This document shows, piece after piece, positions 31,942 to 54,487 of a stretch of 64,000 bases of DNA. The notes below the pieces were generated by a model that searched no databases, was not told the origin of the DNA, and saw only the letters and a list, made by a program, of their open reading frames with translations. The position numbers and the translations under genes were made by a program. Each line of letters starts with the position of its first letter. Position 1 is the first letter of the stretch. Where the stretch lies: the IMG/VR virus record IMGVR_UViG_3300009370_000002. One strand, given 5' to 3'. This DNA is from a virus.

Positions 31942-34900
31942 TTATACATTTACCTTTGCGTAACCATCGACTTTGTCTATGTCGATTGTCATGTCCACAA
32001 CGTCCTTCAAAGAGTCAAGATGAGAGATTAATATTACAGTCTTGAATTGATTCTTAATGATTCGTAAAAGATTTGTAAAACCTTCCATATGTTCTTGGTC
32101 TAAAGCCGTAGCAGGTTCATCAAGTATAAATAGTTCGCTTTTTGGCAAATTTGTTATTGAAATCAAAGCTAAACGTATTGCCATCGATGCAAGTGTCTTT
32201 TCTGCTCCTGAGCCCATTGATAGTGGGCGAGGATCATAGTATGGGTGCTTGATGTTTATATCGAGCTTATCACCGCTTGATTCAAAGAACACTTCAAACT
32301 CCACAATATTGCTGAGTATCTTTGCTATCTCTTCATTAAGAAGAGGGAGCTTTTGCTTAATGATGTTGTAGGGTATGCCGTTAGGATGCATACACTGCAT
32401 AAATAAGTCATATGCAACCCACTCTTCCTCGATAGTCTCAAGCTCTTTCTTGTTTGCCTGTAGTGACTTGAGGGTTGCTTGTGCTGCTCCTTGTTCGACA
32501 AGAAACTTGGTTATCTTATCTTGACACTTATCGTATTGTTCCTTCTTCTGTCTTACTGTTTTTTCTATAGCGGTTCGTTCTCGAATTAAAGTCCCAAGAT
32601 TTTCGATAGCCTCTCGGTTGTCTTCATACTCTTCTACCTTGGCATCAAGTTCAGCAATTTCATTAACCAACAGTTTAACTTTGTTTTGGTTTGAAGTGAG
32701 AGTTAGGCTCCTTGTCTCAATCAGTCTTTGAGCCTTCTCAATCTGAACTTGATAATCATGATACTCAGTCATCCTGATATCGACAGTTTGTATGTCTAGG
32801 GCGTCGAAATCGCTTATTAAATCAGCTTTCATGCTCTCAAGGTGCCCTAGCCTAGCTTTAACATTTGGAAGCGATTTTTCGGCGTTTTTGGCGTCCTTAA
32901 CAAACTTGTTATCAGAGCAGTATTTACAATTCGGATCATACTTGTGGTTGTGAAGCATGTTGATTTTGTCCACCAAGTTGTTGCGGTCTTGCAACAGCGT
33001 AGATGCTGTATCTCTAATCCTGGCTATGTCGTTCTTTATTTCGTTTGCCTCTTCCTTAATGGAGAGCAAATCCTCCATGTCAATCTTCTTGACATTTTCT
33101 TGACAACTTTCTAATGACTCCTTCGCAGATTGTATTTCTGCTTCAATATTTGTGTTGTTTTGCAAGAGCATTGTGCGGCTTCTTGATTTTTGATTTATTG
33201 TCTTATTGACACCATCTATATCAATTATTTCAGCAGGTATGCTATCAATCTTATTGACAACTTCAGATAACTCCTGTAGAAGCTCTTCTTTGCGAACTTG
33301 CATGATGGAACAAATATTTCTTTGTTTCTCAATATCTTCAGCTACCTCTTCAAGAATTTCAACATTCTTTTGAATCTCCTTATCCCAAGGCTTCTCATTT
33401 AGCTTTTTAATAAGCCCTTTCATTTCTGCTGCATCTTTTTTGGCAAGCTTAAACTTCTTATCAAACACTTGCAAATCAAGAAACTTCGCAAGAATCTCTT
33501 TGCGCTTTGTCACGCCCTCTTTAACAAAGGAGAGAGAGTCAAGCTGGGATGACATGGATGTCAATAAGAAATCCTCCATTGTCCCAAACCGTTTGCGGAT
33601 ATTAGCATCCGTTTGATTTCTGGTTGTGCCATTCATACTTTCATCTTCGGAAATTAGCGAAAAGTCTAAATCGACTTTTGCCTCGATGGTTTCCTTTCCT
33701 CGCAATCGCTTTTTGTATTTCTCAAGGTTGCGGCATACTTGGTACGTCTTATCTCCGATATCAATTTGAACTTTACCCTTGGCTCTCTCTCGATTTTGGT
33801 TAATTACGTGGACGTTTTTCCTTTCACCTTTTGATGTTGAATTAAACAACGTGAATAAGAGGCTATCAATAATGCTAGACTTTCCGGAGTAATTACGGCC
33901 GAAGATTCCAACAAGTCCTCTGAGGTTTTCGAAGTTGACACTGTTTTTTTCACTATAGTTGAACAGGTTGTCCCATTCGAGCTTTTTGATTTTCCAAATA
34001 ACATTTCTTGATATCTCCTCGCCTTGTTCGGCTAAAATGTTATACTTTTTATTGTATTCGAGTACTTTGTCTATTACGGAGGTTTGAAGCTCCATTTCCG
34101 ATAAGTAGTCACGTATATGCTTTTCTTGCACAGATATATTTCTTAAGTTTTCTGAAATAACACTATTGGCATAATTTCCATCATCATGATGAGAGTGGGA
34201 CTCCTTCCCATTAAGAGTTGTAACCGAAAACGGATTCCATCTTGCTTCAGCAATTGCTCTTGCCTTTCTAAGCTTATCTGACGGGAGATTCGTTCTTGAT
34301 ACTATTCTTAAGCGGCAGTTCCTAGGGGCATGGGCGTCATCAGGGAATGATCCATCCTTATTAAGCCTGACGGTGATGAATGGCCTGGGATTAGATATAT
34401 GAACACTCTTGACATTAAAATCATCTTTGTTCTGTATCTTCCACAAAAGGTAGCCCTTTTGGGGAGACTCTGAAAACTTCTGTTGAATTGTGGAACCACA
34501 ATACCGAACTCTACCCTCAGTGTCTAACGATTGTTGTCTGTGGATGTCGCCGAGCATTGTGTAATCAAAATCTCTGAAAATTGAAATATCATCGTCTCCA
34601 ACATCCATTGTCCAATTCGCCCCTGTCTTAGAGCCTGCTATTGCTCCATGATAAAGAGCAACATTAACTTTGTGCGCCTGTGTTGGCTTTATCCAGTTGC
34701 CTCTGTCAAAGATTGACAACACGTTGAGACACAAACCATCATCAATGTGAATTTCACCAGAGTCCTTCATAAGGTGAAGCCTAGGGTGATTTAGTGCATT
34801 AACTATTGGCGTAAGGGCATCCTGCCTACTGTCGTTCTTAAGGTTGCCATCATGGTTTCCGAGAATGACATATGTCGGAGCTATGTTTGCCAAAGACGAC

Positions 34901-35094
34901 AAAAACTCAGCGCAAAGTTGAAAGTACTCTGGGCTGAGTTGTGTTTTTGTGTGGGCGATGTCGCCGCAATGAACAATGCAATCAGGTTGCTCTGCTACTA
35001 AGGACTCATACAAATTGCGAAATGCAATTCTGTATTCATCGTGATATTTCAAATTGCGAATATGAGTATCCGCCAAGTGTGCTATTGTATACAT
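31942..35094 (-). CDS. Fused Mre11/SbcD nuclease - Rad50/SbcC ATPase (T4 gp47-gp46-like)
   Basis: Metallophosphoesterase motifs ADTH, GD, GNHD, GDIH; Walker A GRNYSGKSS; zinc hook CKYC; signature MGSGAE; Walker B ILDEP; H-loop LISH. Confidence 0.93.
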   Translation of the reverse strand: MYTIAHLADTHIRNLKYHDEYRIAFRNLYESLVAEQPDCIVHCGDIAHTKTQLSPEYFQLCAEFLSSLANIAPTYVILGNHDGNLKNDSRQDALTPIVNALNHPRLHLMKDSGEIHIDDGLCLNVLSIFDRGNWIKPTQAHKVNVALYHGAIAGSKTGANWTMDVGDDDISIFRDFDYTMLGDIHRQQSLDTEGRVRYCGSTIQQKFSESPQKGYLLWKIQNKDDFNVKSVHISNPRPFITVRLNKDGSFPDDAHAPRNCRLRIVSRTNLPSDKLRKARAIAEARWNPFSVTTLNGKESHSHHDDGNYANSVISENLRNISVQEKHIRDYLSEMELQTSVIDKVLEYNKKYNILAEQGEEISRNVIWKIKKLEWDNLFNYSEKNSVNFENLRGLVGIFGRNYSGKSSIIDSLLFTLFNSTSKGERKNVHVINQNRERAKGKVQIDIGDKTYQVCRNLEKYKKRLRGKETIEAKVDLDFSLISEDESMNGTTRNQTDANIRKRFGTMEDFLLTSMSSQLDSLSFVKEGVTKRKEILAKFLDLQVFDKKFKLAKKDAAEMKGLIKKLNEKPWDKEIQKNVEILEEVAEDIEKQRNICSIMQVRKEELLQELSEVVNKIDSIPAEIIDIDGVNKTINQKSRSRTMLLQNNTNIEAEIQSAKESLESCQENVKKIDMEDLLSIKEEANEIKNDIARIRDTASTLLQDRNNLVDKINMLHNHKYDPNCKYCSDNKFVKDAKNAEKSLPNVKARLGHLESMKADLISDFDALDIQTVDIRMTEYHDYQVQIEKAQRLIETRSLTLTSNQNKVKLLVNEIAELDAKVEEYEDNREAIENLGTLIRERTAIEKTVRQKKEQYDKCQDKITKFLVEQGAAQATLKSLQANKKELETIEEEWVAYDLFMQCMHPNGIPYNIIKQKLPLLNEEIAKILSNIVEFEVFFESSGDKLDINIKHPYYDPRPLSMGSGAEKTLASMAIRLALISITNLPKSELFILDEPATALDQEHMEGFTNLLRIIKNQFKTVILISHLDSLKDVVDMTIDIDKVDGYAKVNV

Positions 35095-35282: not shown

Positions 35283-35500
35283 GCCTCCCTGAAGATTCTT
35301 ATATAACCTTCCATTGTTGTTATGCCACCAACATGGTAGCCCAAATCATATTGGTTGATTATCTTTGATACAATCGTTTTTAATCGGCTTGAGTTGCCTG
35401 TTATAATTTTCATTTCCTTACCCCAATTGGTATTGATAAACTTATGGCATTTGTGTGGTACGTCTTCATATCTCACGCCATGTAAGTCCAATTCATTCAC
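35279..35500 (-). CDS. Stand-alone Smr-domain protein
   Basis: ELDLHG...IITG motif pair typical of Smr domains; 73 aa. Confidence 0.7.
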   Translation of the reverse strand: MNELDLHGVRYEDVPHKCHKFINTNWGKEMKIITGNSSRLKTIVSKIINQYDLGYHVGGITTMEGYIRIFREA

Positions 35501-36435
35501 ATTATTCTCCTTAGCTCATCCATCAAGAAATAGTCATCATGGTCAATTGCTTGAGCCATCTGTTTTCGAGACAAAAAAGTACGTAGCGGCATTTCGGCGA
35601 TGTCCTCAAAGCCACTCGTATCAATCTTATAGAGTTCTATATCATAGTATAACATATTTTTGATGATTTGTCCAGTCTTTTTTTCAGCATCTTTGTCAAA
35701 TGCCATGTAGACTGGTGTATCGTTGAGGGCAATAGCTTGGAATAGTTTTGTCTTGTCTCGGAGAGTTGAGCCCAGAACGGGGATAGCGTTTTCCCCAGCC
35801 GCTATGGCATCAAAAACGCCTTCTACGAGAGTGATGGGCTCATCCCAGTCTACGTGGAGTTCGTTGAAAATAATGTCCTTCTCAGCCGGGGGGTTGAGGT
35901 ATCTCCACTTATGTCCAACATAGGAACGAGCGATGAAATAATTCACATCTCCGTTGTTATTGAAGGAGGGGATGATGATCCTGCCTCCATATCTACCCTC
36001 TGCACAATAGCCAATCTTCCATCGGAGAATCTCCTTCTTTGTGATGTCTCTGCTCTTGAGATAATCGAGAGCTTTCTTGGATGAACGAGGCAGATGTTTG
36101 TTGCAGAGCGAGATAAACTCCTCGGGGAGAGGAACCGTCTGTTCTTCCTCTATGTTATTGATTTCATTGAAGATTTCGTCAAACTCTGATAAGTCGAGTC
36201 TACCTTCAAGTTCAAGCCACTTCTGTCTCTGCTGGTATGATCCGAATTTGCGAACGATACGATAAGCGTTCTTGCCTCGCCTGTCGCAAACCCAACAATG
36301 CCAACCTCGCTTGAGATTGATTGCAAGCTTCTTCTTGTGATGATTGCAATACGGACAATGATAGTAGAGTTCTCCACCTTGAGGGGTGTTGGGCCTTCCA
36401 AGAATGTCCGATAATATTCTAATCTTTTGTTCCAT
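35497..36435 (-). CDS. DNA primase (DnaG/gp61-like)
   Basis: Zinc finger CPYCNHH...HCWVC; RIIIPS; TOPRIM EGVFDAI and FDKDA. Confidence 0.92.
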   Translation of the reverse strand: MEQKIRILSDILGRPNTPQGGELYYHCPYCNHHKKKLAINLKRGWHCWVCDRRGKNAYRIVRKFGSYQQRQKWLELEGRLDLSEFDEIFNEINNIEEEQTVPLPEEFISLCNKHLPRSSKKALDYLKSRDITKKEILRWKIGYCAEGRYGGRIIIPSFNNNGDVNYFIARSYVGHKWRYLNPPAEKDIIFNELHVDWDEPITLVEGVFDAIAAGENAIPVLGSTLRDKTKLFQAIALNDTPVYMAFDKDAEKKTGQIIKNMLYYDIELYKIDTSGFEDIAEMPLRTFLSRKQMAQAIDHDDYFLMDELRRIM

Positions 36436-36604
36436 TTATCACCTCCAAGTTTTCCACTCGTACTATTTCAACTCTTCCATCTGTCATAAGAACATAAGCC
36501 GCCACACAATACACAACATCCTGTATCTCTGTAACTATACCAATACGGCCATCATTCCCGTTGGGAACCCACTGATCACATTTTACCAAATCACCTATCT
36601 TCAC
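36419..36604 (-). CDS. MKIGDLV-family small SH3/KOW-like protein, copy 1
   Basis: GTG start; KIGDLVK...GIVT...LEVIN. Confidence 0.75.
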   Translation of the reverse strand: MKIGDLVKCDQWVPNGNDGRIGIVTEIQDVVYCVAAYVLMTDGRVEIVRVENLEVINGTKD

Positions 36605-36987
36605 TTATCACCTCCATCCGGTTCTTTTTCTACTCTATAGAAGGCAACAACATCATAAATATCGTTGCATGTCTGACCGTGTGCATATGCAATACCTCGC
36701 CAATTGCAATCGCCTACATCTGTGTCTGGGTGGCAATCTCTTTTGATTTCGCCCATAGAAGTCTCAACCCAACAATCTAGATGATCGACATCACATTGCA
36801 CCGCACTAATAGTTACTGATGCGCCCGGATAACCCTCCTCTGCCATTTCTTCATACTCTTCACATTCCCAAGTAACGTCTGATATATATACTGCTTCATA
36901 ACCTGGATGGTATGAAGACGTAGGAATATAGAACCCTTCACATGATGATAGTACCAATGATGCTATAATATATTTATCTATTTTCAT
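36601..36987 (-). CDS. Putative Cys-rich lipoprotein
   Basis: Lipobox-like LSSC after a hydrophobic stretch; six further Cys. Confidence 0.6.
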   Translation of the reverse strand: MKIDKYIIASLVLSSCEGFYIPTSSYHPGYEAVYISDVTWECEEYEEMAEEGYPGASVTISAVQCDVDHLDCWVETSMGEIKRDCHPDTDVGDCNWRGIAYAHGQTCNDIYDVVAFYRVEKEPDGGDK

Positions 36988-37196
36988 TTTTTCCTCCCAA
37001 CTGCGATTACGTCACCCTCTTTGCACTTACGAGAGTAGACATGTATTGTCGTGGGCGAGTACTTATGAAACAAAGAATCATAAATCTCGATTGTGCATAC
37101 GCCCTTTTCTGCTTTGTCTACTGTTCCTATGATTGTGTATTCAACCTTGGGCTTTGAGTGCGCCAAGCATCCCACAAATAATAATATGTTAATCAT
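36984..37196 (-). CDS. Putative small lipoprotein
   Basis: MINILLFVGC; two further Cys. Confidence 0.55.
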   Translation of the reverse strand: MINILLFVGCLAHSKPKVEYTIIGTVDKAEKGVCTIEIYDSLFHKYSPTTIHVYSRKCKEGDVIAVGRKK

Positions 37197-37377
37197 TTAT
37201 CACCTCCAAATCTTGACCAAACTTGAATACTGTGCCGCCATCGGCAATCCAATAAACCTTCCAACCATATTCTCGTGAACGAGCAATGATGACTCCAACT
37301 CGGTTTTCAACCTCTTGGGGGCTGTACTCGACATTTTTCCATTTCTTCCTTAGTTTTACCAAATCACCGATTTTCAT
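37189..37377 (-). CDS. MKIGDLV-family protein, copy 2
   Basis: MKIGDLVK...VGVII...WKVYW...LEVIND; start at ATG 37377. Confidence 0.75.
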   Translation of the reverse strand: MKIGDLVKLRKKWKNVEYSPQEVENRVGVIIARSREYGWKVYWIADGGTVFKFGQDLEVIND

Positions 37378-37537
37378 TTTCAAAATAACCCCCCGTAACC
37401 ACCTCTAAGTTGGTAAAGTAAGTCCACTTAATATTAGCGGTTTCCGACTCATAAATATGTATCACATGTCCGTCTATAGCCACAACTATGCCAATGGCAT
37501 TACTGCGTTTCCAGCGCACTAAATCACCCACCTTCAT
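37364..37537 (-). CDS. MKIGDLV-family protein, copy 3 (57 aa, not in the ORF track)
   Basis: Hand translation MKVGDLVRWKRSNAIGIVVAIDGHVIHIYESETANIKWTYFTNLEVVTGGYFENENR. Confidence 0.75.
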   Translation of the reverse strand: MKVGDLVRWKRSNAIGIVVAIDGHVIHIYESETANIKWTYFTNLEVVTGGYFENENR

Positions 37538-37709
37538 TGACTACCTCCAAATATTCTATTTTGTATTTTGAGTGCCCTCCGTGGCACCAAACAACCCAAA
37601 CTATTTCATCTATATGGGTGCCGCCCTGTCTTGGCCAATGTTCCCTTCTTGATGTCACCACACCAATCCTATGGAAATACTTACACCTTACTAAGTCTCC
37701 GATTTTCAT
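37524..37709 (-). CDS. MKIGDLV-family protein, copy 4
   Basis: MKIGDLVR...IGVVT...VVW...LEVVNE. Confidence 0.75.
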   Translation of the reverse strand: MKIGDLVRCKYFHRIGVVTSRREHWPRQGGTHIDEIVWVVWCHGGHSKYKIEYLEVVNEGG

Positions 37710-37863
37710 TTATCTTCTCCATGTGCTTTTCAGGCGCCATTATCATTATAAGATTTTCAATCATGGCAATCACCCACCACCTTGTATCTCTATCACGAAT
37801 ACTATACTTATTTAATATAATAGCATAACCACCATTATAACGAACCAAATCACCGATTTTCAC
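37681..37863 (-). CDS. MKIGDLV-family protein, copy 5
   Basis: GTG start; KIGDLVR...MEKINE. Confidence 0.7.
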   Translation of the reverse strand: MKIGDLVRYNGGYAIILNKYSIRDRDTRWWVIAMIENLIMIMAPEKHMEKINENRRLSKV

Positions 37864-38032
37864 AGTATGCCTCCAAATGATATACCTGTTCCCACTCTAC
37901 GGTACCAGCACTAAACCAATAAACCTTAATAAACTTAATCCACCTTGAGTCAAGCTGGAGTATTATACCGCAACCATGATAAAGCTCGTTATCGTTTCGA
38001 GCACATACCAAATCACCAACTTCAAACTTCAC
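37850..38032 (-). CDS. MKIGDLV-family protein, copy 6
   Basis: Probable GTG start at 38032; KFEVGDLV...GIIL...VYW...LEAYCE. Confidence 0.7.
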   Translation of the reverse strand: MKFEVGDLVCARNDNELYHGCGIILQLDSRWIKFIKVYWFSAGTVEWEQVYHLEAYCENR

Positions 38033-38177
38033 CAACCAATTCCAAGCACTGTTCAAGGACAATGGACTCTCTGCCATCATCCCACTCTACCAATATCCAC
38101 CAAACGCTATGCCTGAAGACTGGCCCTTTAGATATTCCAATACCATCTTTGAACTTTACTCTGGTTCCCACTTTCAT
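38022..38177 (-). CDS. MKIGDLV-family protein, copy 7
   Basis: ATG 38177 with GGAGG SD; MKVGTRVK...VEW...LELV. Confidence 0.7.
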   Translation of the reverse strand: MKVGTRVKFKDGIGISKGPVFRHSVWWILVEWDDGRESIVLEQCLELVGEV

Positions 38178-38226
38178 ATTCTTCCTCCGATAAATTGAAT
38201 ATAACACGTTTAGAGATTCTGTCAAA

Positions 38227-38439
38227 TTAATTTCCAACCAGCACTAACCATTTTTCTGCATATGGTTTTGTTTCATTCGTGGCTGGGAAATGTATATCCC
38301 ACATAACAGCGCCCCTATCATATGTAACCTCAAGTATTTCCCTCCAGCCCAATTGCCTCACGATTATGCCTACTTCATCTGGTTCATATGAGAATACTGC
38401 CACTCTCACCAAATCCCCCAATTTAAACTTCGGCTTCAT
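38227..38439 (-). CDS. MKIGDLV-family protein, copy 8
   Basis: KFKLGDLVR...VGIIV...LVLV. Confidence 0.7.
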   Translation of the reverse strand: MKPKFKLGDLVRVAVFSYEPDEVGIIVRQLGWREILEVTYDRGAVMWDIHFPATNETKPYAEKWLVLVGN

Positions 38440-38578
38440 ATGGCTCTAGATTCAAAACCCACTCACTCTTTGTTGTGCCATCCAACTGCAAAACATACCA
38501 GACTTTTTTGGCAACCTTTCGAATTAAAACCACCGGCTGTCTTTCTATCATTGTCTGTACCAGATCACCTACTTTCAT
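38423..38578 (-). CDS. MKIGDLV-family protein, copy 9 (51 aa, not in the ORF track)
   Basis: Hand translation MKVGDLVQTMIERQPVVLIRKVAKKVWYVLQLDGTTKSEWVLNLEPYEAEV. Confidence 0.75.
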   Translation of the reverse strand: MKVGDLVQTMIERQPVVLIRKVAKKVWYVLQLDGTTKSEWVLNLEPYEAEV

Positions 38579-38729
38579 GCACTACCTCCAAATTGGAAAT
38601 TGGTTCCATATAAATATATTCTTTTCCTGCCCACAATACTTCCACAAGACACTCGCTTATTACCCCAACAACCAACCCAAAAGCTATATGGCTATCTGAG
38701 GCAAAGCGAACCAAATCACCGACCTTCAT
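38565..38729 (-). CDS. MKIGDLV-family protein, copy 10 (54 aa, not in the ORF track)
   Basis: Hand translation MKVGDLVRFASDSHIAFGLVVGVISECLVEVLWAGKEYIYMEPISNLEVVHESR. Confidence 0.75.
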   Translation of the reverse strand: MKVGDLVRFASDSHIAFGLVVGVISECLVEVLWAGKEYIYMEPISNLEVVHESR

Positions 38730-38883
38730 TGATTACCTTTAAGTATTTTTTTTCTTCAAACTCTGTTTGTGGCTTGTCACCAGGCTTCCATTTAACAACG
38801 ACGATTTCGCCCATCAAGTGTACAATTTCGCCTGTTCCAAGGGCGGGTCTCCATTTCCTTATAACTTTATCTCCGATTTTCAT
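38716..38883 (-). CDS. MKIGDLV-family protein, copy 11 (55 aa, not in the ORF track)
   Basis: Hand translation MKIGDKVIRKWRPALGTGEIVHLMGEIVVVKWKPGDKPQTEFEEKKYLKVINEGR. Confidence 0.75.
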   Translation of the reverse strand: MKIGDKVIRKWRPALGTGEIVHLMGEIVVVKWKPGDKPQTEFEEKKYLKVINEGR

Positions 38884-39064
38884 TTACCACCTCCAAATCT
38901 TCTATTCTAACGTTTTGAATTGCGTTATAGTCTATCCAATGCACTGTGGCATATTTTTTGTCTATTATTGCGATAACTGTCCCGTATCCATACATTAACT
39001 CTGGTGCCTTGTATGGGCTGGCGTCTATTACCAATGAGCCAACTTTTATGGTGTCTTCTTTCAT
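38867..39064 (-). CDS. MKIGDLV-family protein, copy 12
   Basis: IKVGSLV...GTVI...VHW...LEVVNE. Confidence 0.7.
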   Translation of the reverse strand: MKEDTIKVGSLVIDASPYKAPELMYGYGTVIAIIDKKYATVHWIDYNAIQNVRIEDLEVVNENRR

Positions 39065-39090
39065 ATAACATAGTATGAAATGAATGTCAA
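39062..39090 (-). promoter_or_regulatory. Possible sigma70-type promoter at the head of the small-ORF array
   Basis: Perfect TTGACA, 17-nt spacer ending TGT, imperfect -10 TATATG that overlaps the annotated ATG. Confidence 0.45.
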
Positions 39091-39091
39091 A

Positions 39092-39250
39092 TTATTTTGA
39101 TTGATTTAAATAATTATTAAAGCAAACATAAGTAAACACACCACTCAAGGCACACCAAAACCAACTTGAAGTTGCAAATGCAAACCAAAAAAAATAAAAG
39201 TTAAGTACGGCACAAAACAAACTTACCCATTTACTGTTTAAAAAATTCAT
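39092..39250 (-). CDS. 52-aa aromatic-rich two-TM membrane protein (not in the ORF track)
   Basis: Hand translation MNFLNSKWVSLFCAVLNFYFFWFAFATSSWFWCALSGVFTYVCFNNYLNQSK; AGGAG SD; ATGA overlap with the resolvase stop. Confidence 0.7.
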   Translation of the reverse strand: MNFLNSKWVSLFCAVLNFYFFWFAFATSSWFWCALSGVFTYVCFNNYLNQSK

Positions 39251-39780
39251 CTCGACTCCTTTTCAATAAGTAGTCCTGCTCTGGCAATAACAACAGAATC
39301 TGCCATATCATCGGTTCCAGGCTTGGGGTTTCCATATCTTGTATACTCAACAACAAAATCTTTTGGATACTGATTCTGCGCCCATTCAATGACTTTGAGC
39401 TTTGTATTTTCACCCCTCTTTATTTTCAAACCAACTAACCCACGGGCTTTGTTTGCCGCTATCAATGTTGCCGAAGTTCCATACAGGTTTCGTACCATCC
39501 ACGATACCATACCATTAAAACGCTGGAGTTTTGCCATTGTCATTGCAGTTGTCTTCCCTCCAGAAAACATTATGAATGGTGCCTCAATATATATTTCTTT
39601 TATATAATATTTGTTATAATTAATTTGCAAATATCTCTCTAATTCAAAACATCTATCTTCTAATGTGCCTTTAGAGTTTAGTTTAATTACTTGACAATCA
39701 AGTAAGTCTGCGTTAGAATTCAGTATGGTTATGCCAACCTTGCTTGTACTAACATCCAAGCCTAAAATAGTTTCTTTCAT
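39247..39780 (-). CDS. RuvC-like Holliday junction resolvase
   Basis: ILGLDVSTS, IYIEAP, DDMADSVVIA acidic catalytic motifs of the RNase H-fold RuvC family. Confidence 0.85.
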   Translation of the reverse strand: MKETILGLDVSTSKVGITILNSNADLLDCQVIKLNSKGTLEDRCFELERYLQINYNKYYIKEIYIEAPFIMFSGGKTTAMTMAKLQRFNGMVSWMVRNLYGTSATLIAANKARGLVGLKIKRGENTKLKVIEWAQNQYPKDFVVEYTRYGNPKPGTDDMADSVVIARAGLLIEKESR

Positions 39781-39787
39781 AACTTAC

Positions 39788-39816
39788 ATTATAACATATT
39801 TTTTGTGGATTGTCAA
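39788..39816 (-). promoter_or_regulatory. Consensus sigma70 promoter with extended -10
   Basis: TTGACA-N17(ending TGT)-TATAAT, perfect consensus; ATG follows after 7 nt. Confidence 0.9.
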
Positions 39817-43860: not shown

Positions 43861-46104
43861 TTAATTTTCTGGTTTTTGTTGGTAATTAAAAATTAAATTA
43901 AAATCAACTTTTTTTCCAGTGCTTTTTGATTCTAGTCTTAATTTTATAAAGTCCTTACTAAGCTTATTATAATTCCACACACTATCTTCCAATCCCTTAT
44001 CGCCCAAAACTATATTATTATTCACTGCTGTTATTGCATCATTGCCGCTTGAATCGTAAGAATTCATGGTTAGATGTCTTTCATTAAAAGATATTTTCAT
44101 ATATTTCCTAAATGATACGTTAAATGAAAAATCATCAGATTCCGGCATTTCGTACACTTTAGCGTTTAAAATCGTTTCATCAGAATCTTTTATTTTTTCC
44201 ACCTCATAAACAACAGATGGATTCGAAAAATTATCCCGATGTGTTAAGCACCTAAATAAATAGTAATATTTTTTACCATGTTCCAGCATATGATCAATAG
44301 TAGCTGATTTTTTTAATTTTCTAGAAAACCTATCTAGTTCGCCACTGTCAATTACATGATAGAGTTTATCACTAAAATCTTTAATAGTTCTTGGTGGGAC
44401 ATCCATCCTATAAATTTCATACATCCCATATGCAGCAACCGGTGACGTATAAGGGTATTCGGTTTTTGCATAAGTTTGCAATTTACTAATATATTCAGTA
44501 TCCGATTCACTTATCATTTTTAAATGTTTTCTGCCGTGTGGTGTGATATCTGTTGTTGGTGGGATACCTACTGATATTTTTATTTTAAAATCGGCATTTT
44601 TATAATTTGAAAACCTAACTATTGGTTTACCAGGTGGTGGCTCAACCACTGCCAACTCTACCATTCCATTGGTTACTTCAAAAATTCTAACTCTAGGACT
44701 CACCCCCATATCAAAAACAAATCCGTCCGAGCGTTCCACTTTTGGTCGAAAAGAAATATCGTATACAACAGCAGCATAAAATGTTGTCATTATGTATTCA
44801 TAAACAGTGCCATACTGTATTTGTGTATCAATAAATTGAGAAACATTTTCGTTATTAAAAAAATAAAAATTCTGAATTGGTTCCATTCCGCCTCTTTTTC
44901 TTTTTGCAATTTTAAATGCCACTGCTTCGGTTTTACAAAAACTCCTGTCATAAAATAACTCTTTAAAGTTTTTTATATTATCTGCAATATACGTTTGCAT
45001 CTGAGCTTCAAGAATCGCGGTTGAATCTAAAATCCCGAAATCACTAAAACCATCTTTTTCTATCTCAACATTGTCCGGGTCGTACAAAGATAAATTACTA
45101 TTACCTTTTATAAAAAGAGCATAGTTAGTGTTATTTAACCCAAATGGTTTTAATCTCCAAGGATACACACGCACAACAGATTCGCCATCAACCGCATGTG
45201 TACGGTAGTTGTTATTTATAAAATCGCCCCTTAGTGTCTTTAAAAATATATTTGCATAACCAGATTTTTTTATTCTTTCTCCAAAGCCTTTGATAATCGG
45301 GCTAGAAGCGGGAATAGAAACACAATTAAAAAATGGAACATCATATAAGTCTTTAGGATTTGGAGCACGGGACGGTGTATAAGAAAAAAACATATTTTTC
45401 TTATTAGGCCTAAGGGCATCATTATTAATTAACCCATGCTTTGCATAATTGTGAAAATAATTACTTTCATAATTATACCCATTATGCCAATTGAATTTAT
45501 ATATATTTCCATTGCCTTTTTGGTTTGTTGGGTAAGAATTAACCATTGCATACTCCCTCATCTCTATATGACTATCATTATTCAAATAAGTAATTGCACT
45601 CAATTCATTCGGGTATTGTTTTTGGTACCACCCAAACATATAACAAGGAAGGCTTAATTCCGAACTGCCTATGGTTGCATTTTCATAATCTATCATTTGA
45701 AGATTGTAATAAGAATATGAACCACCCCATTTAAATATAGTATTCTTTCTTATTGATTCATCTACATCATCACTAATATCTTTATAATTTATATTAATTC
45801 TTTCATAAGTAAAATCCATTTTACCAGAACTCATGTCAAGGTAAAGTTGCTCTTTCAATCTTTTTGCTGCATCAGTATGGGCTTCAACAACACAATCGCC
45901 CCTTGTTCTTTTTATCGGAAAACCATCTTCATTATACTCGACTGTGGAGCCTACAGCCTCCACATCAAATGCCAGGCCTCCCTCTTCCGTCCCTACTTTT
46001 TCTATTACTCCACCATGAGATGTCATTTTTATGCCAAAAGTATCAAAAAACCCCTCAATAAGGCTAACATTATCTTGTTTTGAATGTACATTCTTAGTAG
46101 TCAT
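43861..46104 (-). CDS. Large hypothetical protein (747 aa), probably virion-associated
   Basis: Long ORF in the structural block; AT-rich. Confidence 0.6.
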   Translation of the reverse strand: MTTKNVHSKQDNVSLIEGFFDTFGIKMTSHGGVIEKVGTEEGGLAFDVEAVGSTVEYNEDGFPIKRTRGDCVVEAHTDAAKRLKEQLYLDMSSGKMDFTYERININYKDISDDVDESIRKNTIFKWGGSYSYYNLQMIDYENATIGSSELSLPCYMFGWYQKQYPNELSAITYLNNDSHIEMREYAMVNSYPTNQKGNGNIYKFNWHNGYNYESNYFHNYAKHGLINNDALRPNKKNMFFSYTPSRAPNPKDLYDVPFFNCVSIPASSPIIKGFGERIKKSGYANIFLKTLRGDFINNNYRTHAVDGESVVRVYPWRLKPFGLNNTNYALFIKGNSNLSLYDPDNVEIEKDGFSDFGILDSTAILEAQMQTYIADNIKNFKELFYDRSFCKTEAVAFKIAKRKRGGMEPIQNFYFFNNENVSQFIDTQIQYGTVYEYIMTTFYAAVVYDISFRPKVERSDGFVFDMGVSPRVRIFEVTNGMVELAVVEPPPGKPIVRFSNYKNADFKIKISVGIPPTTDITPHGRKHLKMISESDTEYISKLQTYAKTEYPYTSPVAAYGMYEIYRMDVPPRTIKDFSDKLYHVIDSGELDRFSRKLKKSATIDHMLEHGKKYYYLFRCLTHRDNFSNPSVVYEVEKIKDSDETILNAKVYEMPESDDFSFNVSFRKYMKISFNERHLTMNSYDSSGNDAITAVNNNIVLGDKGLEDSVWNYNKLSKDFIKLRLESKSTGKKVDFNLIFNYQQKPEN

Positions 46105-49100
46105 CTTTCATGCCTCCTCCGCTGGATCCGCCTCGTGTCTTGTTACCAGTATCCGGTATTTGCCGAACGTTGGTAATTTTGTGACTATCACCTACCCAGA
46201 GCGACTTATCAGCAGACACCACACCAGAATTAGCAGCATTGAAAGAATTAGCTAATCTGTTGGCAATAGTTTTGGATGTTCTGAGCTTGTGTGATTTCTT
46301 TGTAGGAGATAATGTATGCCCATGCGGAGCGGAGCCACGAACACCATGCAATTTAAAGCAATTTGGATAACATACGCTTTTAGCTGGTTGAACTTTCCAA
46401 TTAACAATTTTGTGTCTGTGTCTTACATTTGAATCAGATGGATGAATAAATTCAGCGGTATATCCGTTGCCGTTGCCATCTACATGCCATTCATGATGAT
46501 GATTGGAGTTGTGACTTGTCCTACCTCCTGTTTTCTTTCTTGCAACATTCTTATCTTCTAATAGGAACACTCCACCATATACTAAAAAGTTCTCTTTTTT
46601 CTTTGGTATTCCCACATTTTCATATTTTTCCATTATGCACAGTTTATTATGCCCCCCAATAGCACTATAATTAACACTTGTCATGTCCTTAAGAATGGGT
46701 TCTGACATGTCATACGTGCCGTCATTTGCAATTGGAAAACCATCTATAAACTTCACTTTTTGAATATTTCCATACATTTGGTATGCAAACTCCTCAGTTT
46801 TTGGATTTTTAAAAATGTCTTGTTTATTTAATAAATAATTTGAACGGACAGATTGTGAACGGTTGAACATCAACGAACGAACCTGCAATGGTATATCTTC
46901 TGGCTTTATGTCTTTTGAAACCAGCCCACTGTAAAACACGCTCTTTTTATTATTTAAATCAAACGCAGCTATGGTTTGGATTTTACCTTTTTTAGTAAAT
47001 GCCATCGCGCTACTAATTTTATCTAAGCGTTCTATTTTCTTCTTACGAGATAGCGCCCTTGTTATTATACTAGTATTAGAGACAAAAGCGGATGCATTTC
47101 CTAAAAATTCTGTTGCCTTTAGCGGTAATGTTTCTTTTGCTTCTTCTCTTTCCTTGGTTATTAAATCTATTGATATGCTTGACTTCAGCGCTTTGGAGAG
47201 TAAGTTTGTTTTATAAGTTTGCTTAAGGCTTTTTTTCCTGATTCGCCTTATCTTATTAAAGGATTTTAAACTAACTTTAGAAGAAATCGTCTTTGTGTCC
47301 AGCAAATCATTTCCCACGAAAATTGTCTGGGGTGTAAAATACAAATGGGCATCCCTTTTAACATCAAGAAGTTGATTCATTACTCCCTTATCTATATTAG
47401 GTGGCGATTCAAAAGGAACACTCACAGTTGACTTAAAATATTTCGAAAATTCTACATTCGATCGATTATCAAAATTAGCTTTATTAATTGCAAGCTTGTT
47501 ATCAAAATTAAAATATTCGTATTTAACACCACTTTTCTTTTTAAGAAAAAACTTTTTAAAAGCAAAATTTGTTGAAATTATTCCTATTTTTTTCAATTTT
47601 TTTGTTTTTATATTCCTCCCTTTATTGCCACCGCGCATAGTAGGATATTTTACTTTGTATTTTTTTGTCAACGACTCAATTACCATCTGCACCTCTTTTT
47701 GTGCCGAAGTTAAAATCTGGGGGGTGGCAGTGGCAAAATTCACTTTTGTATCTATTTGAATTTCATCTGGGCTGAGTCCTAGCATAAGACAAGCCCTGTC
47801 TAATGACTCAATCCCCCTTACTATTGGAGATGCCTCCAGTGCGTTTATCGTTTCACCTCCGATTGTCCTCCCATTCATCCTAACATTTTGTTTATTAAAA
47901 TATTTTTGAATAAATGTGCCACTTATTTTGTCCTCTGTGGTGTTGTATGCTTTTGCTTTAACAACTTTATTTTTAATAAGTGTCAACTCTTTGCTGAGTG
48001 CTATGATGTTTTTTAATACTCCCTTTACGTAAGAATGGAAAACGTCTTCTATATCCATAGACACAGAGTATGTGTATCTTCCTGATGGAGCTTTTTTCAT
48101 AGTATTATCTATGAAGTAGAGTGTTTTAAGCTCGTTAGGCAACCCAGCATCGACAAATTCTAATGAGGCATTTATTCTCGGATATGGATTTTTTTTCACC
48201 AGATCGCCTCTATTAAGAAATCCTATTTTACTTTTACTTTTTCTCAAATTTAAATAAGCAATGGTGCTGGTTGATATTTTCTTTTGGCGCCTCTTTCTTT
48301 CTCGAAGTGACTTTTTGCCATTCTTTAAGGTTGCTCTTTTTGCAGAATGTTGGTAGCTGTGTTTTTCAACCTTTATGCTTGAAATATTGGCTTTTTTTGC
48401 AATCTCCATAAAAAGCTCCTTATCAATGCTATATATTTGCTTTCCTATGGGGCTTTTGTTTAATAGTATATTGCATAAATTTAAAATAAAATATTTATGC
48501 AATCTCCCTGATGTATCGACTTGATCATCTAATTCATACACAAAAGAACGATTTTTGGCTTTGCTTATCTTTTTCAAAAGTTTGCTGTGTCTATTCTTGC
48601 GTTTTAAGTTTTTTGGCTTATCCTTATCAGGCAGCGGCCAGCCTCCTGGATCGTGGGCTAATGAAAATGCCAAATCAGAATCCCACTTATTCATAATGCC
48701 GCTGGGCATATTATATATTACTATATCATTGTCAACCATTTTTCTTGCTAATGTGGGGTTGAATTTTTTCCCTCTTATATTTCCTTTCCATTGTTTTGTG
48801 CCTTTGTTATAAACTGCCAGCCCGTGCCACACGGAACCATCTAAAGAATTTTTAAACTGTGGTATTTTTTTTAACTTTTTGCCATTCTTAAAGAGTGGCA
48901 CTTCTTTTAGCGCACCACTTAAATCAAGATTAGTTTTTAATTTTTTGGGGCTCCTTTTTGCTTTGATTTTCCTCATCATATTTTTAGTACCAAGTTTAGG
49001 TTTTGTTGTTTTTTTAGACATTTTCTTTTGGACTTTCATTTTATCCAAATCATATGAAGTAAACAAAAACAAAGAAGAATCATTAGATATTTTTCTTTTT

Positions 49101-49444
49101 AAATTAATGACTAGAGTATAAGAAAACACCCTATATAAACCATCGCCTGAGATACTTGTTGCTTTTGGGCTTGAAGCAGAAACAAACACTACATCGTCAT
49201 CAGTAAGCACCTTTCTTCCTGCTGTAACTGCTTCAATTGTTTTTTTGCCTTCCACCAAAGCCGCACCTATTCGAATTCTTGATTTTGTATCTTTTTTATC
49301 AAACCACTTAGACTTTCTAATACTGATATAATCCAATAAATTTACCTTTACCTTAAGAATAGTGGAGCCAACACGCTCAGTAATTACTGCGCTTTTCAAA
49401 TGAACATTCGGCAGCGTTTTTAAAGATATAACATTATCAGACAT
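46094..49444 (-). CDS. Large Lys-rich hypothetical protein (1116 aa) with His-rich C-terminal motif
   Basis: Long ORF; HNSNHHHEWH...HRHKI...PHGHTL near the C-terminus. Confidence 0.6.
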   Translation of the reverse strand: MSDNVISLKTLPNVHLKSAVITERVGSTILKVKVNLLDYISIRKSKWFDKKDTKSRIRIGAALVEGKKTIEAVTAGRKVLTDDDVVFVSASSPKATSISGDGLYRVFSYTLVINLKRKISNDSSLFLFTSYDLDKMKVQKKMSKKTTKPKLGTKNMMRKIKAKRSPKKLKTNLDLSGALKEVPLFKNGKKLKKIPQFKNSLDGSVWHGLAVYNKGTKQWKGNIRGKKFNPTLARKMVDNDIVIYNMPSGIMNKWDSDLAFSLAHDPGGWPLPDKDKPKNLKRKNRHSKLLKKISKAKNRSFVYELDDQVDTSGRLHKYFILNLCNILLNKSPIGKQIYSIDKELFMEIAKKANISSIKVEKHSYQHSAKRATLKNGKKSLRERKRRQKKISTSTIAYLNLRKSKSKIGFLNRGDLVKKNPYPRINASLEFVDAGLPNELKTLYFIDNTMKKAPSGRYTYSVSMDIEDVFHSYVKGVLKNIIALSKELTLIKNKVVKAKAYNTTEDKISGTFIQKYFNKQNVRMNGRTIGGETINALEASPIVRGIESLDRACLMLGLSPDEIQIDTKVNFATATPQILTSAQKEVQMVIESLTKKYKVKYPTMRGGNKGRNIKTKKLKKIGIISTNFAFKKFFLKKKSGVKYEYFNFDNKLAINKANFDNRSNVEFSKYFKSTVSVPFESPPNIDKGVMNQLLDVKRDAHLYFTPQTIFVGNDLLDTKTISSKVSLKSFNKIRRIRKKSLKQTYKTNLLSKALKSSISIDLITKEREEAKETLPLKATEFLGNASAFVSNTSIITRALSRKKKIERLDKISSAMAFTKKGKIQTIAAFDLNNKKSVFYSGLVSKDIKPEDIPLQVRSLMFNRSQSVRSNYLLNKQDIFKNPKTEEFAYQMYGNIQKVKFIDGFPIANDGTYDMSEPILKDMTSVNYSAIGGHNKLCIMEKYENVGIPKKKENFLVYGGVFLLEDKNVARKKTGGRTSHNSNHHHEWHVDGNGNGYTAEFIHPSDSNVRHRHKIVNWKVQPAKSVCYPNCFKLHGVRGSAPHGHTLSPTKKSHKLRTSKTIANRLANSFNAANSGVVSADKSLWVGDSHKITNVRQIPDTGNKTRGGSSGGGMKDDY

Positions 49445-50484: not shown

Positions 50485-53400
50485 TTATTCATCCTCTCCT
50501 CCAAAGAAACTCTCATATATATTGGTGTCGGGATTGGAACCAACCTCATCGGTGATTGCTTTTCTTGTTAAACCACCTAATAACTTACTTTTTCCCGAAG
50601 GAGAAAGGCTTAAATTAATTCCCGCTCTTGTTTTGGGCATTTCTTCTGGTTTTGTGAGTATGCCTGTGGCTGATTTGTCTATTTGCAGCTTCTCTATATC
50701 CATATCCGAAAACCTCACTTGTGACCTAATTTTAATTAGTTCAACGAAAGAAAAGAAATCGTATGGCCAATTATATGATATGGCTCGGTTTGGCTCGTTT
50801 GCAACTAAAACATTCTCGGGTATCTCTTGCCTAGCGCCTTGCACATTTTTCTTCCAATAATTGGATTCACCCGACTTCAAATACATTTTATTATAATAAT
50901 TGACACTAGCCCTTTGCTTAACCTTAAATAATAACCACTTAACTTTAGGATTATTAATTATATCCGCCTGTGATAATATTTCTTTTTCCTCAGAAATAAG
51001 ATTGCATGCCACGGCTGAACGAAGCACTGAATGGCTTTTGGCAGAAGGCGGCAACAAGCCTTGCCACATATACTGTAGGTCTTCTTTATTAAAACTGTGC
51101 TCGAATTTAAGAATAAACATGGCGAACGGCTTTATACTTTCTGGGTATCTTACAAAGTCCATCTGAGGAGGTATAACAAAATCTCGCATCCTCTCCACCA
51201 TCAACCTCACAGAATCACCAGGGTAATTGCCCTCTCCCTTTAAATTTGGCAACTTCTGGCTCCAATAGACAGAATCTGCTCTTCCGTCGATAATCGCTTT
51301 TGCGGCTTCAATAATTTCCCTAGCTTTGTCTGATTCTTCGGCAATATTGAAAAATTCCTTCCCATCTGATCCCTCTATGAACGGCACAAGAACAATGCCC
51401 TCCTTAACTATCACATTGTCTGCGAGGTTTCCGAGTTTTTGTTTTTCACTGCTGAAGCCCAAAACATCCGCCAGGGATGCCGAAGGTTGATAAGTAGCAG
51501 CACCACCCGGAGCAATTGCCTTTTGCCATGATACGGGAACATCATGAACTTGAAGATAAATGCCTTCATCAAAATTTGGAATTTTGCCAAACTGGTGCCA
51601 CATCCCACGGGGAATAGAAGCAGAGGAGGGATTATTGCAGGATGTGATGGTGGATATGTCTTCGTAATCTTTGAAATTCAATATTGGAGTTTCAAATTTC
51701 GTTTGAATAACCCATCTTGTATTTTCTTGGTTATCAACAACCTCTTGATTAAATTCTCCAACCTTAGCTTGCCCAAAAAGATTAACAGAAGCGTTTATTT
51801 GCATGGCATTATCATTCATTACATCAACCGCTTGCGGGCCTGTTGAAGTGTTGTTGCTGGGTGTCACTGTGTCTTTGGGATACAACTGTTCGCTATCAAA
51901 CCTATAATAATTAACAGTGCTACCAGCTATTATCTCAGCCAATGGAATTTTCCCGTCTCTTGGTGCTTTATAAGTTATATCTGCCCACGCACGTCCATGA
52001 TAATACGGGGGTGTAAATGGATAATTGAGTCCTTTCGAGTGACCAGAATAAATCTTATGGGGACCTGCTGATTTATCCCACTCTATTCCAGTTACAGAGG
52101 GCACGTTTCTACTGCCTATAGAAGTAGCGGCAGGATACTCGAAATGCCCTCCGGTTTCTGGACCAAATGCTGATGGCCTTGAATACATTGTTATTGTTTC
52201 TTTCTGTATTCCGTCTGAAATATCTTGTGGAGGCCTATACGGGAACCCGTTCGCTCCTGTAACAAAGGGTCTTGGAAATTTCATGCTTCGATACATCGAA
52301 ACCCTCATTGCATATGTCGAACCTGATGTCATCGTTCCTATGCCTTGTTGCGGTTGAGATGCTATAGTTGTGAAATTTTTCCCTTGCAAAAAGAAATTTG
52401 GGATTTCTGCCAAAAAATTATGAGCCATTTTTGCATATAAATTGTCTCCTCCACCATCCCAACTAGCAGCGGTAGAACCTGTGATGGCAAATTCCCTCCA
52501 ACTAGCGCTAGTATCAACTTCCATATTTGAAAGAAGAACATCTGCTAAATACTTGTGGGGCTCCACTAATGCTTCAAACGGTATCCTTTCATCAAATAAG
52601 CTTTTTGTATGATAAGTTGGAAGCGTCAGAGACGGGGAATTTGTTTCAACATCATCAGTATAGACAGGATAATCGCATGCAACACCCGCCTTTATAGTGT
52701 TGAATAGCGTACCAGGGGCAAACAGAGGAGCTATTAAAGGTTGCGCTGAAGCGGATACGTTAAATGAAAAACTTCCAAAAGGCCAACCGAGGAGGCGGCT
52801 CCCAGTTGTAAAGCTAATATAATTCGAATAAGAATTGTAAAATTGCTTTGCCAACTCAACAGAACGCTGTACAGGATAAAACCCGTTGTAAGGCAAGAAC
52901 TTAGATATAGCATTACATCTTATAATTAGTTTAGATGGCTCCACAAAGTCTTCGTGATCTTCTAAAATAAAATCAAAACTTTTCATTAAATCAGTTGTAG
53001 AGTAAACATCATAAAAGCGCCCAGTTGTACTATCAGAATAATTTGACAAGCCTCCGGTTATACTGATGAAATTATCAATCGGGGCACTAACTGGTTCCGT
53101 TTGGTAATGTTCAACAAAATTACTAATTCTAAACTCTGATACGATTGAATAATCCTTGCCTATAAGTCTTATATCTTGGGCATAGTCTTCATAAGAATCA
53201 TAAAATGGTTTAGAATTTGCTTGAGATGGGGCATCCCAATTGGCTTCTCCTCCATACCTATGCTGCAAAAATGTCATATCATCGGAGGCAGCAACCCCAA
53301 GAAGCCCCGTTGGAGATGTCACTGATTGTGATTTGTGGGCAACATGTCGCCTAGCATACATTGGACCGGGAGAAATTCTGTTGTTTACAGTTTCTGCTGT

Positions 53401-54486: not shown

Positions 54487-54487
54487 T

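Follow-up and report, generated by a model that had tools for sequence, protein, structure and literature searches.

The hyperplastic regions of T4-type phages harbor promoter-early stem-loop (PeSL) cassettes (Arbiol et al. 2010, PMC2839356; Comeau et al. 2014, PMC4122927). The locus considered here, a chain of twelve small open reading frames (ORFs) on the minus strand (36419 to 39064) of a 64,000-nucleotide (nt) stretch of viral DNA (IMG/VR virus record IMGVR_UViG_3300009370_000002; the window, in what follows, is this whole 64-kb stretch), resembles these units in several respects. In both, small non-essential genes occupy variable regions between T4-type core genes, each gene is flanked by a short repeated regulatory sequence that is the site of whole-gene insertion, deletion and replacement, and early promoters are sigma70-like. 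On the other hand, the PeSL repeat is an intergenic promoter plus terminator, whereas the repeat of the array is a dual-coding overlap that appears to couple translation; the array has two or three promoters for twelve genes and no terminators between units; and PeSL-flanked ORFans are mutually unrelated, whereas the units of the array share one protein fold. A promoter and stem-loop for each cassette are not found in the array, where neighbors overlap by 11-29 nt, while the ends of insertions, deletions and replacements do lie in the repeated element: the array can be thought of as working like a PeSL system without being a member of that class.

Comparison with integrons is also apt, in that the array is a one-directional chain of small, mostly promoterless, exchangeable genes behind an upstream promoter, and close relatives differ in the genes they carry in it. 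However, overlaps of 11-29 nt leave no room for attC sites; most units have no intergenic space, and attC elements are not found. No integrase is encoded among the larger window ORFs scanned against Pfam and PHROGs, a scan that was not exhaustive. Exchange in the array would, in distinction from integrons, presumably proceed by general recombination over the ~30 nt that the junctions have in common.

Clusters of small early host-takeover genes make up the early regions of T4 and, in the Bacillus phage SPO1, the host-takeover module. The array shares with these many small genes of unknown or host-directed function, host-type promoters and a non-essential location. It differs from them in that the T4 and SPO1 genes are mutually unrelated and have no common junction, whereas a single fold recurs 4-30 times per locus in the array family.

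The explanation that best accounts for the array, and to which we accord somewhat better than an even chance, is that of a coupled, exchangeable chain of SH3-fold mini-genes specifying putative binders. The twelve genes would be separately translated, each encoding a stand-alone SH3-fold barrel of 50-65 amino acids (aa), and would be transcribed together with flanking genes from early-looking promoters at 39816-39788 and 38225-38198, perhaps also from an element at 39090-39062. Translation would be coupled: the codons of the last structural strand (LEV) would double as a Shine-Dalgarno site for the gene that follows, whose start, read in another frame, would supply the disordered tail (N/S-E-S/N/G-R-stop). 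The ~30-nt junction common to all units would also be where whole units enter, leave, take the place of one another or change position as cassettes; homologous or microhomology recombination is the most likely route, with no dedicated recombinase involved. Each unit would represent an old subfamily under purifying selection, with a fixed core and with variation in the RT and n-Src loops, and each protein would most likely have its own target among host or defence components, bound early in infection, so that the chain would be a reshufflable set of takeover or counter-defence binders.

If this is true, a second and mechanistically different kind of modular shuffling stands beside the PeSL model of T4-type phages. 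The shuffling would take place at the level of translation, with expression guaranteed to any inserted unit. It would also bring to light, in abundant uncultured marine phages, a protein family of great size (thousands of clusters, 4-30 copies per locus) that is unannotated and consists of stand-alone SH3-fold members. A more far-reaching proposition, that this is a recombinase-free cassette system in which ~30 nt serve as protein end, ribosome-binding site and start, stop and recombination site, and in which thousands of SH3-fold binders are each directed at a different defence or takeover target, must be regarded as doubtful; were the recombinase-free cassette reading true, large marine phages could add any unit to a chain that is already expressed, and the array would be a phage-side counterpart of bacterial defence islands and integrons.

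The twelve cassettes and their junctions

A preliminary description of this DNA, made from its sequence, had claimed twelve paralogous small ORFs at 36419-39064. A search of the window with the family's own profile bears this out, yielding exactly twelve matches (E 4e-22 to 6e-11) and nothing elsewhere. The ORFs, all on the minus strand and 51-76 aa long, lie between the genes of a RuvC-like resolvase and a primase and have in common the signature MK(V/I)GDLV ... G(I/V)V ... VxW ... LEV. Four of them (55, 54, 51 and 57 aa) are shorter than 60 aa; a 60-aa floor would account for the four said to be missing from the ORF track. The cassettes and the junctions between them are as follows (all minus strand; L001, L135 and the like designate loci of other phages).

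38867..39064: cassette 1, 65 aa, 'PYKAPE' subfamily, profile E 4e-21; N-terminal extension, no Shine-Dalgarno site
38716..38883: cassette 2, 55 aa, profile E 2e-18
38565..38729: cassette 3, 54 aa, modelled with AlphaFold2
38423..38578: cassette 4, 51 aa, profile E 6e-11; orthologues in L001 and L135
38227..38439: cassette 5, 70 aa, profile E 3e-12; lacks the LEV end; L135 orthologue 90% identical
38022..38177: cassette 6, 51 aa from ATG 38177, with its own GGAGG site; profile match
37850..38080: cassette 7, 76 aa from its ATG, profile E 4e-22; an alternative GTG at 38032 gives 60 aa and the usual short overlap
37681..37863: cassette 8, 60 aa, GTG start; most divergent copy, also modelled with AlphaFold2
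37524..37709: cassette 9, 61 aa, profile E 3e-18; orthologues in L135 (73% identical) and L002 (59% identical)
37364..37537: cassette 10, 57 aa, profile E 2e-18; missing from L135
37189..37383: cassette 11, 62 aa from ATG 37377; dN/dS (ratio of nonsynonymous to synonymous substitution rates) 0.10 against the last cassette of L002
36419..36604: cassette 12, 61 aa, GTG start, profile E 5e-20; tail overlaps the primase start by 17 nt
38867..38896: example junction, made up of TTGGAGGT (LEV codons/ribosome-binding site), a spacer, the start codon (ATG) of the following gene and the stop codon of the preceding one
near 38565-38591, 37850-37876, 37524-37550, 37189-37209 and 36419-36448: equivalent junctions, read from the sequence

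Successive overlaps in the chain are 17, 14, 14, 17, 11 (or 59), 14, 29, 14 and 14 nt, and the sole real gap between neighboring copies, of 49 nt, separates copies 5 and 6. Thus, the array was correctly characterized as made up mostly of overlapping ORFs (by 11-29 nt), but it is interrupted: between copies 11 and 12 stand two ORFs of another kind, both carrying lipoprotein-type signal sequences. Orthologous cassettes of the array and of related phages have dN/dS values of 0.10-0.28 (for non-saturated dS and with overlapped codons excluded). The twelve ORFs are almost certainly real genes with SH3-fold barrel products.

Several functions appear to be read from the same nucleotides of the junction. 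(What this means in practice is that the LEV codons, TTG GAG GTn, are at the same time a GGAGGT Shine-Dalgarno site placed 5-6 nt ahead of the next start, and that the tail N/S-E-S/N/G-R-stop is the ATG/GTG-AAA-GTn-GGT-GA(T) of the next gene read one base earlier.) Codon usage carries the corresponding imprint: in a set of 677 unique family genes, GAG encodes the LEV Glu in 94%, as against 42% at other Glu codons, and TTG or CTG encodes the LEV Leu in 77%, as against 37% at other Leu codons. In a consensus drawn from 54 junctions, third-codon positions of MKVGDLV vary freely, which implies that this segment is under protein-level selection as well.

The tail of a cassette follows its downstream neighbor rather than the cassette to which it belongs. 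Before the primase gene, four different last cassettes (that of the window, ending ..LEVINGTKD, and those of L001, L002 and L006) have the tails INGTKD, INGRKD, MNGRKD and IDGRKD; the common (ING/MNG/IDG)-(T/R)KD tail is there because the primase start follows. The unrelated lipoprotein-signal ORFs join the chain through the same kind of junction. Conservation of the protein ends, which the preliminary description had singled out, is, as read from these sequences, largely the outcome of nucleotide-level dual coding; the ends are not uniformly kept, since LEV is intact in ~7 of the twelve copies. Overlaps of 11-29 nt together with the absence of terminators argue for one translationally coupled operon, and we consider a coupled, dual-coding junction to be very probable. 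Cassette 1 is a point on the other side, in that it lacks a Shine-Dalgarno site and its ATG falls inside a promoter-like -10 element.

Two smaller observations concern start codons. At cassette 1, and at the same place in L001, L002 and L006, ATA, GTT or TTG is found where the remaining copies have ATG. An estimate of ~44% GTG starts, suggested by the tail Ser codon AGT, was discarded in favor of a direct count, which gave 25% GTG and 62% ATG.

Fold of the array proteins and what they might bind

An AlphaFold2 model of cassette 3, built with an 80-sequence alignment of the family, has a predicted local distance difference test score (pLDDT) of 92 and places strands at residues 6-9, 17-23, 28-33, 39-43 and 47-49; the tail (residues 50-54) is of low confidence. 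The model of cassette 8, the most divergent copy, is the same five-stranded barrel (pLDDT 86.9). Foldseek retrieves SH3-fold barrels as top matches across the whole model, with template modelling (TM) scores of 0.7-0.84. In VIA with the cassette 3 model, all 50 of the top matches are SH3-fold domains over residues 1-54 (Z 6.1-8.0, root-mean-square deviation 1.2-3.1). The best of these is the KOW domain of Spt5 at Z 8.0, a value reached over 53 of the 54 residues. Matching structures include KOW domains of Spt5, NusG and eL14, the SH3 domain of Hpy99I, UBE2O, Tudor, PWWP, NdhS, R67 DHFR and YorP. The models thus support assignment of the array proteins to the five-stranded SH3/KOW/Tudor type of small beta-barrel, in agreement with the preliminary description, which had proposed such a barrel from the residue pattern. 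Two considerations temper this: the cassette 8 model leans on the same family alignment, and the structural neighbors found in BFVD are uncharacterised proteins alone (DUF4314 among them), with no annotated viral protein in their number.

Likeness of fold does not extend to family membership. No Pfam family reaches its cut-off (the best are SH3_17 with 15.1 bits against 27.7, and MSSS with 12.6 against 26.8), and even at E<=1 ten of the twelve copies have no KOW family among their matches. Sub-threshold PHROGs matches of the array copies are confined to families of unknown function, and a profile search of PDB sequences gives marginal matches to the HERC2 Mib domain and to L24. In the ESM Atlas, neighbors are unnamed clusters, the named entries (UBE2O SH3-C, DsrB, R67 DHFR and DUF4314) scoring 0.84-0.86, which is the chance level. 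Moreover, nothing like the NusG/Spt5 or ribosomal-protein setting surrounds the family ORFs, which stand alone (51-76 aa in the array). Membership in KOW or in any named SH3 family is not supported.

Small beta-barrel domains have been surveyed (bioRxiv 10.1101/140376). The array proteins share with Spt5, the NusG KOW domain, eL14/uL24, the Mind bomb SH3 repeat, UBE2O and Hpy99I the barrel of five strands, its RT, n-Src and distal loops, and the short 3-10 turn that leads into the last strand; Z is 6-8 over the 54-residue model. They differ in standing alone, in remaining below Pfam thresholds, and in their distinct MK(V/I)GDLV...LEV signature. YorP of SPbeta (PDB 2heq; Z 6.3) and the actinophage DUF4314 proteins have the same size and fold, but no significant sequence match connects either with the array, and they are not reported as chained arrays.

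Variation within the family is sharply localized. In 677 unique members, insertions occur almost solely in the RT loop (49% of members) and in the n-Src loop (78%, up to 35 aa), after positions 19 and 32 of the family profile; the earlier proposal of a fixed scaffold with variable loops is upheld to this extent. The RT and n-Src loops are the usual binding face of SH3-fold domains. A fixed barrel core with variation in the loops of this face makes a different binding partner for each protein the most likely reading, and the idea of a library of binders fits the modelled structure. The variable loops, the host-type promoters and the accessory location of the array suggest that each of these small proteins may be a binder with a different target in the host or its defences; we advance it tentatively, as somewhat short of an even chance. 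What weighs on the other side is that the orthologues are under purifying rather than diversifying selection, which fits stable, housekeeping-like roles equally well. If this reading holds, a family of such size, whose scaffold is constant while its RT and n-Src loops vary, would be a natural hunting ground for new inhibitors of bacterial defence or of central host machinery, and also a ready-made natural scaffold library.

The proteins might instead have one kind of ligand. They would then be nucleic-acid binders in the manner of KOW, Sso7d/Cren7 or Hfq-like proteins, serving as RNA or DNA chaperones or as modulators of transcription or translation. The best structural matches (KOW domains of Spt5, NusG and eL14, together with single-stranded-DNA-binding PWWP and OapB) point in this direction, as do the placement of the array among genes of replication and recombination (those for RuvC, the primase and SbcCD) and a Trp after strand 3 that is conserved in 61% of family members. 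On the other hand, net charge in the array ranges from -4 to +4 and isoelectric point (pI) from 4.5 to 9.8, and in the wider family the median pI is 5.3, with 57% of members acidic; so wide a range in a mostly acidic family argues against a common nucleic-acid ligand. Conserved charged positions are limited to K2, D5 and the Glu of LEV, all of them in stretches that double as start region, stop of the neighboring gene or ribosome-binding site. Taken with the lack of KOW matches in Pfam for ten of the twelve copies, these properties make binding of nucleic acid as the common function unlikely, the most probable of the alternatives considered here though it is.

Probable exchange of the cassettes, and their age and spread

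The case that the mini-genes of the chain are exchangeable as units rests on comparison with 75 related viral loci, fetched with the primase as query. The order p415-RuvC-primase-SbcCD is conserved across these loci. The interval between RuvC and primase is not: it is absent in the most distant relatives and amounts to 2.8-7 kb only in the clade whose primases are at least 85% identical, where it holds 4-14 family members in a set that differs from phage to phage. With its conserved flanks and variable content, the RuvC-primase gap qualifies as a hyperplastic accessory region.

The comparison of array content and order in relatives that the preliminary description had suggested brings out differences of whole genes, at junctions. 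DNA homology blocks between the window and L001-L008 and L135 begin and end at junctions. The block that contains the primase starts 1-24 nt before its ATG, and in five of the seven relatives 11-13 nt before it, inside the junction. Cassette 11 and the last cassette of L002 are 88.5% identical in nucleotide sequence over a block bounded by two junctions. Matches confined to the junction (32-49 nt, 86-94% identical) connect non-orthologous positions. The closest array, that of L135, has the order 1, 3, 4, X1, 5, 6, X2, 9, 11, X3, and then the lipoprotein gene, at 98% nucleotide identity. Four of the twelve copies (2, 7, 8 and 10) are missing from it or have others in their place, copy 9 leads straight into copy 11, and the breaks of homology (at 38869/38738, 38436, 37714, 37378 and 37208) are all junctions. 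Cassette 2, which L135 lacks, is 75% identical to a copy at another array position in L006. In metagenomic data, contigs from four marine runs of one study cover the array, and others branch at 37376/7, 37844 and 38710/13, which are junctions.

The exchange of cassettes at the junction is, on this evidence, probable, and held with good confidence. Two points detract from it. The three joints at which contigs jump 130-1331 nt from one junction to another have sides only 21-25 nt long and are possibly effects of assembling repeats, for which reason these short joints were set aside as evidence of deletion; and nucleotide identity between junctions is moderate, the contiguous identity often being 10-14 nt. 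On account of that moderate identity, recombination at junctions is deduced from breakpoints rather than observed.

The array does not have the look of a recent expansion. No pair among the twelve copies matches by BLASTP at E<=1e-3, and recent tandem duplication as its origin is thereby ruled out; yet eight of the twelve have orthologues 58-90% identical in other phages. The array is thus a collection of old subfamilies. The 'hypervariable middles' of the preliminary description are better described as divergence between such subfamilies, each with orthologues at this level of identity and the low dN/dS given above. Cassette 1 is represented by orthologues that are the first copy in L001, L002, L003, L006 and L135 (83% identical in L135), and cassette 6 by orthologues in L135 (84% identical) and L002; cassette 7 has no close orthologue among the fetched loci.

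It is conceivable that the array is a selfish or neutral by-product of a self-coupling junction, which would let units insert and be expressed free of cost, accumulate and shuffle. Copy number and content do vary freely between near-identical backbones, the region is dispensable in distant relatives, and two unrelated lipoprotein genes share the same kind of junction. Purifying selection (dN/dS 0.10-0.28), subfamilies held at 58-90% identity across phages, a position for cassette 1 that is conserved in six phages, and the persistence of the family across hundreds of phage contigs (median 10 copies per locus) all stand against it, and we judge it a little less probable still than a common nucleic-acid ligand. 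That the proteins are instead subunits of one hetero-oligomer or scaffold, comparable with tandem multi-barrel proteins, draws on fused forms with 2-7 tandem copies in metagenomes and on the similar amounts of neighboring products that coupled translation would give, but it is very unlikely, since array composition differs between close relatives, leaving no fixed stoichiometric set, and multi-domain forms are rare (4 of 1064 family ORFs in phage loci).

The family is also met with on a wider scale. Its profile finds at least 6344 clusters at E<=1e-3 among 1.84 billion representatives. The DNA pattern of the junction occurs in 85 IMG/VR stretches, as against 2 occurrences in 596 Gb of bacterial and archaeal genomes, both in metagenome-assembled genomes. 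The 87 loci that were fetched with this pattern or contain it hold 995 family copies (median 10, maximum 30 per locus), always on one strand. None of the 1064 family ORFs is fused to a known domain, so that fusion partners offer no clue to function. Long multi-repeat proteins, which head the search of representatives and were found through summed weak repeats, show generic SH3-fold likeness alone; they are heterogeneous (Mind bomb SH3 [SH3_15], Tudor_5, KOW and unnamed repeats), and a family assignment based on them was dropped. It is in these long proteins alone that SH3_15, Tudor_5 and KOW become significant.

Two variants of the domain may be recorded. Metagenome proteins P0124, P0127, P0133, P0139, P0156 and P0204, together with L076, contain a very similar domain (FKVGDRV ... 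LELV) repeated in tandem and in frame 2-7 times, with a period of ~60 aa, and are fused counterparts of the chained mini-genes. A subfamily of ~125 aa (L081 12031-12423, L107 8457-8837, L150 8623-8982, L151 12111-12512) has the first two strands of the family, a long insertion and a conserved C-terminal W.P.DWL motif.

The RuvC-primase gap of some relatives also carries other cargo, namely ClpS, a class II aldolase, UvdE and an HNH endonuclease (coordinates: L002 5021-5341 and L006 3800-4120; L002 5390-5992; L001 6551-7468; L004 7577-8017). The ClpS adaptor homologue is recognized at E 6e-29, and the HNH ORF is described as HNH/recombinase-like. Genes of this sort are characteristic accessory cargo for a hyperplastic region.

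Promoters, neighboring genes and source of the DNA

The elements that surround or interrupt the chain, all on the minus strand, are the following.

39788..39816: sigma70-consensus promoter TTGACA-N17-TATAAT with TG extension, score 12/12, upstream of the RuvC-like gene
39247..39780: RuvC-like Holliday-junction resolvase (PHROG 159, E 5e-12), the conserved upstream flank of the variable region
39092..39250: ORF for a 52-aa hydrophobic protein, between RuvC and cassette 1
39062..39090: promoter-like element TTGACA-N17-TATATG, its -10 overlapping the ATG of cassette 1
38198..38225: internal sigma70-type promoter TTGACA-N16-TATATT with TG extension, score 11/12, in the 49-nt gap before cassette 6
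36984..37196: unrelated 70-aa ORF with lipoprotein signal (lipobox LFVGC, from the translation), inserted in the chain
36601..36987: unrelated 128-aa acidic ORF (lipobox LSSC; pI 4.2, 7 Cys)
35497..36435: DNA primase (PHROG 47, E 2e-36), the conserved downstream flank

The coding strand of the array region contains two strong promoters; of terminator-like sites, that strand has just one within the array, a weak stem of 5 pairs. The transcript that extends into the array probably begins at the promoter at 39816-39788. The RuvC-like gene that this promoter precedes has no ribosome-binding site, its ATG lying 7 nt past this perfect promoter, and the geometry TTGACA-N17-TATAAT-N7-ATG is kept in seven phages (the window, L001-L004, L006 and L008) despite differing spacers, an arrangement suggestive of a leaderless early transcript.

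The preliminary description had assigned early expression of the array to the sigma70-like element at 39062..39090, and this assignment holds in part. A like element (TAATTTGACA-N17-TAT..) is found at this position in four phages (the window, L001, L002 and L006), and the motif TAATTTGACA...TGTTATAT is common to the 39090 element and the 38225-38198 promoter. However, stronger sites exist elsewhere; because its TATATG -10 overlaps the ATG of ORF1, the element cannot drive ORF1 as annotated, and because the last base of that -10 is not T, it is absent from the promoter scan list.

The RuvC-like gene has homologues in 48 of the 75 related loci and directly adjoins the primase gene in the most distant ones. 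Hydrophobic ORFs of 46-53 aa occur at the position equivalent to 39092..39250 in L001, L002, L003, L006 and L135, always with a 'PYKAPE'-subfamily cassette following them. Neither of the two ORFs that interrupt the chain has a Pfam or PHROG match. The shorter one (36984..37196) is 98% identical in nucleotide sequence in L135 and 51% identical in aa sequence in L001. Judged by their signal sequences, these two ORFs may encode superinfection-exclusion or receptor-masking lipoproteins, and the lipoprotein signals are a hint of a diderm host. The strong GGAGG sites, together with the TTGACA/TATAAT promoters, would speak against a host from the Bacteroidota.

The window is from an uncultured marine myophage, a distant member of the T4 superfamily, with a genome of roughly 190 kb. 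This follows from the relatives of its head protein, from the lack of a near-identical deposited phage and from marine metagenome contigs. The long ORFs are all on the minus strand and include those for the major head protein, portal, large terminase, tail sheath and tail fibre. The head protein is closest to those of Flavobacterium phage immuto, Microcystis phage Mel-JY01 and Rhodothermus phage RM378, with identity below 50% in each case. A near-identity search of cultured and deposited phages with 15 kb of the window found no match, and tblastn of the same phages with two typical array members found nothing meaningful, queries this short being able to find close relatives alone. Array proteins are present on contigs that reach 195 kb in metagenomes, and the DNA itself occurs in runs from marine metagenomes.

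Three very large ORFs occupy the minus strand at 54488-62266 (2592 aa), 50485-54558 (1357 aa) and 46094-49444 (1116 aa); the 2592-aa and 1116-aa ORFs have no PHROG match at E<=1e-5 (the 1357-aa ORF was outside that scan). A perfect 12/12 sigma70 consensus at 59919-59946 (plus strand), on the non-coding strand of a giant ORF, may be due to chance or may be an antisense promoter. Beyond the primase gene, a single 1050-aa ORF (31942-35094, minus strand) combines an N-terminal calcineurin-like phosphoesterase (SbcD/Mre11-like) with an SMC/SbcC-like ATPase, and this fused SbcCD is kept in most of the related loci.

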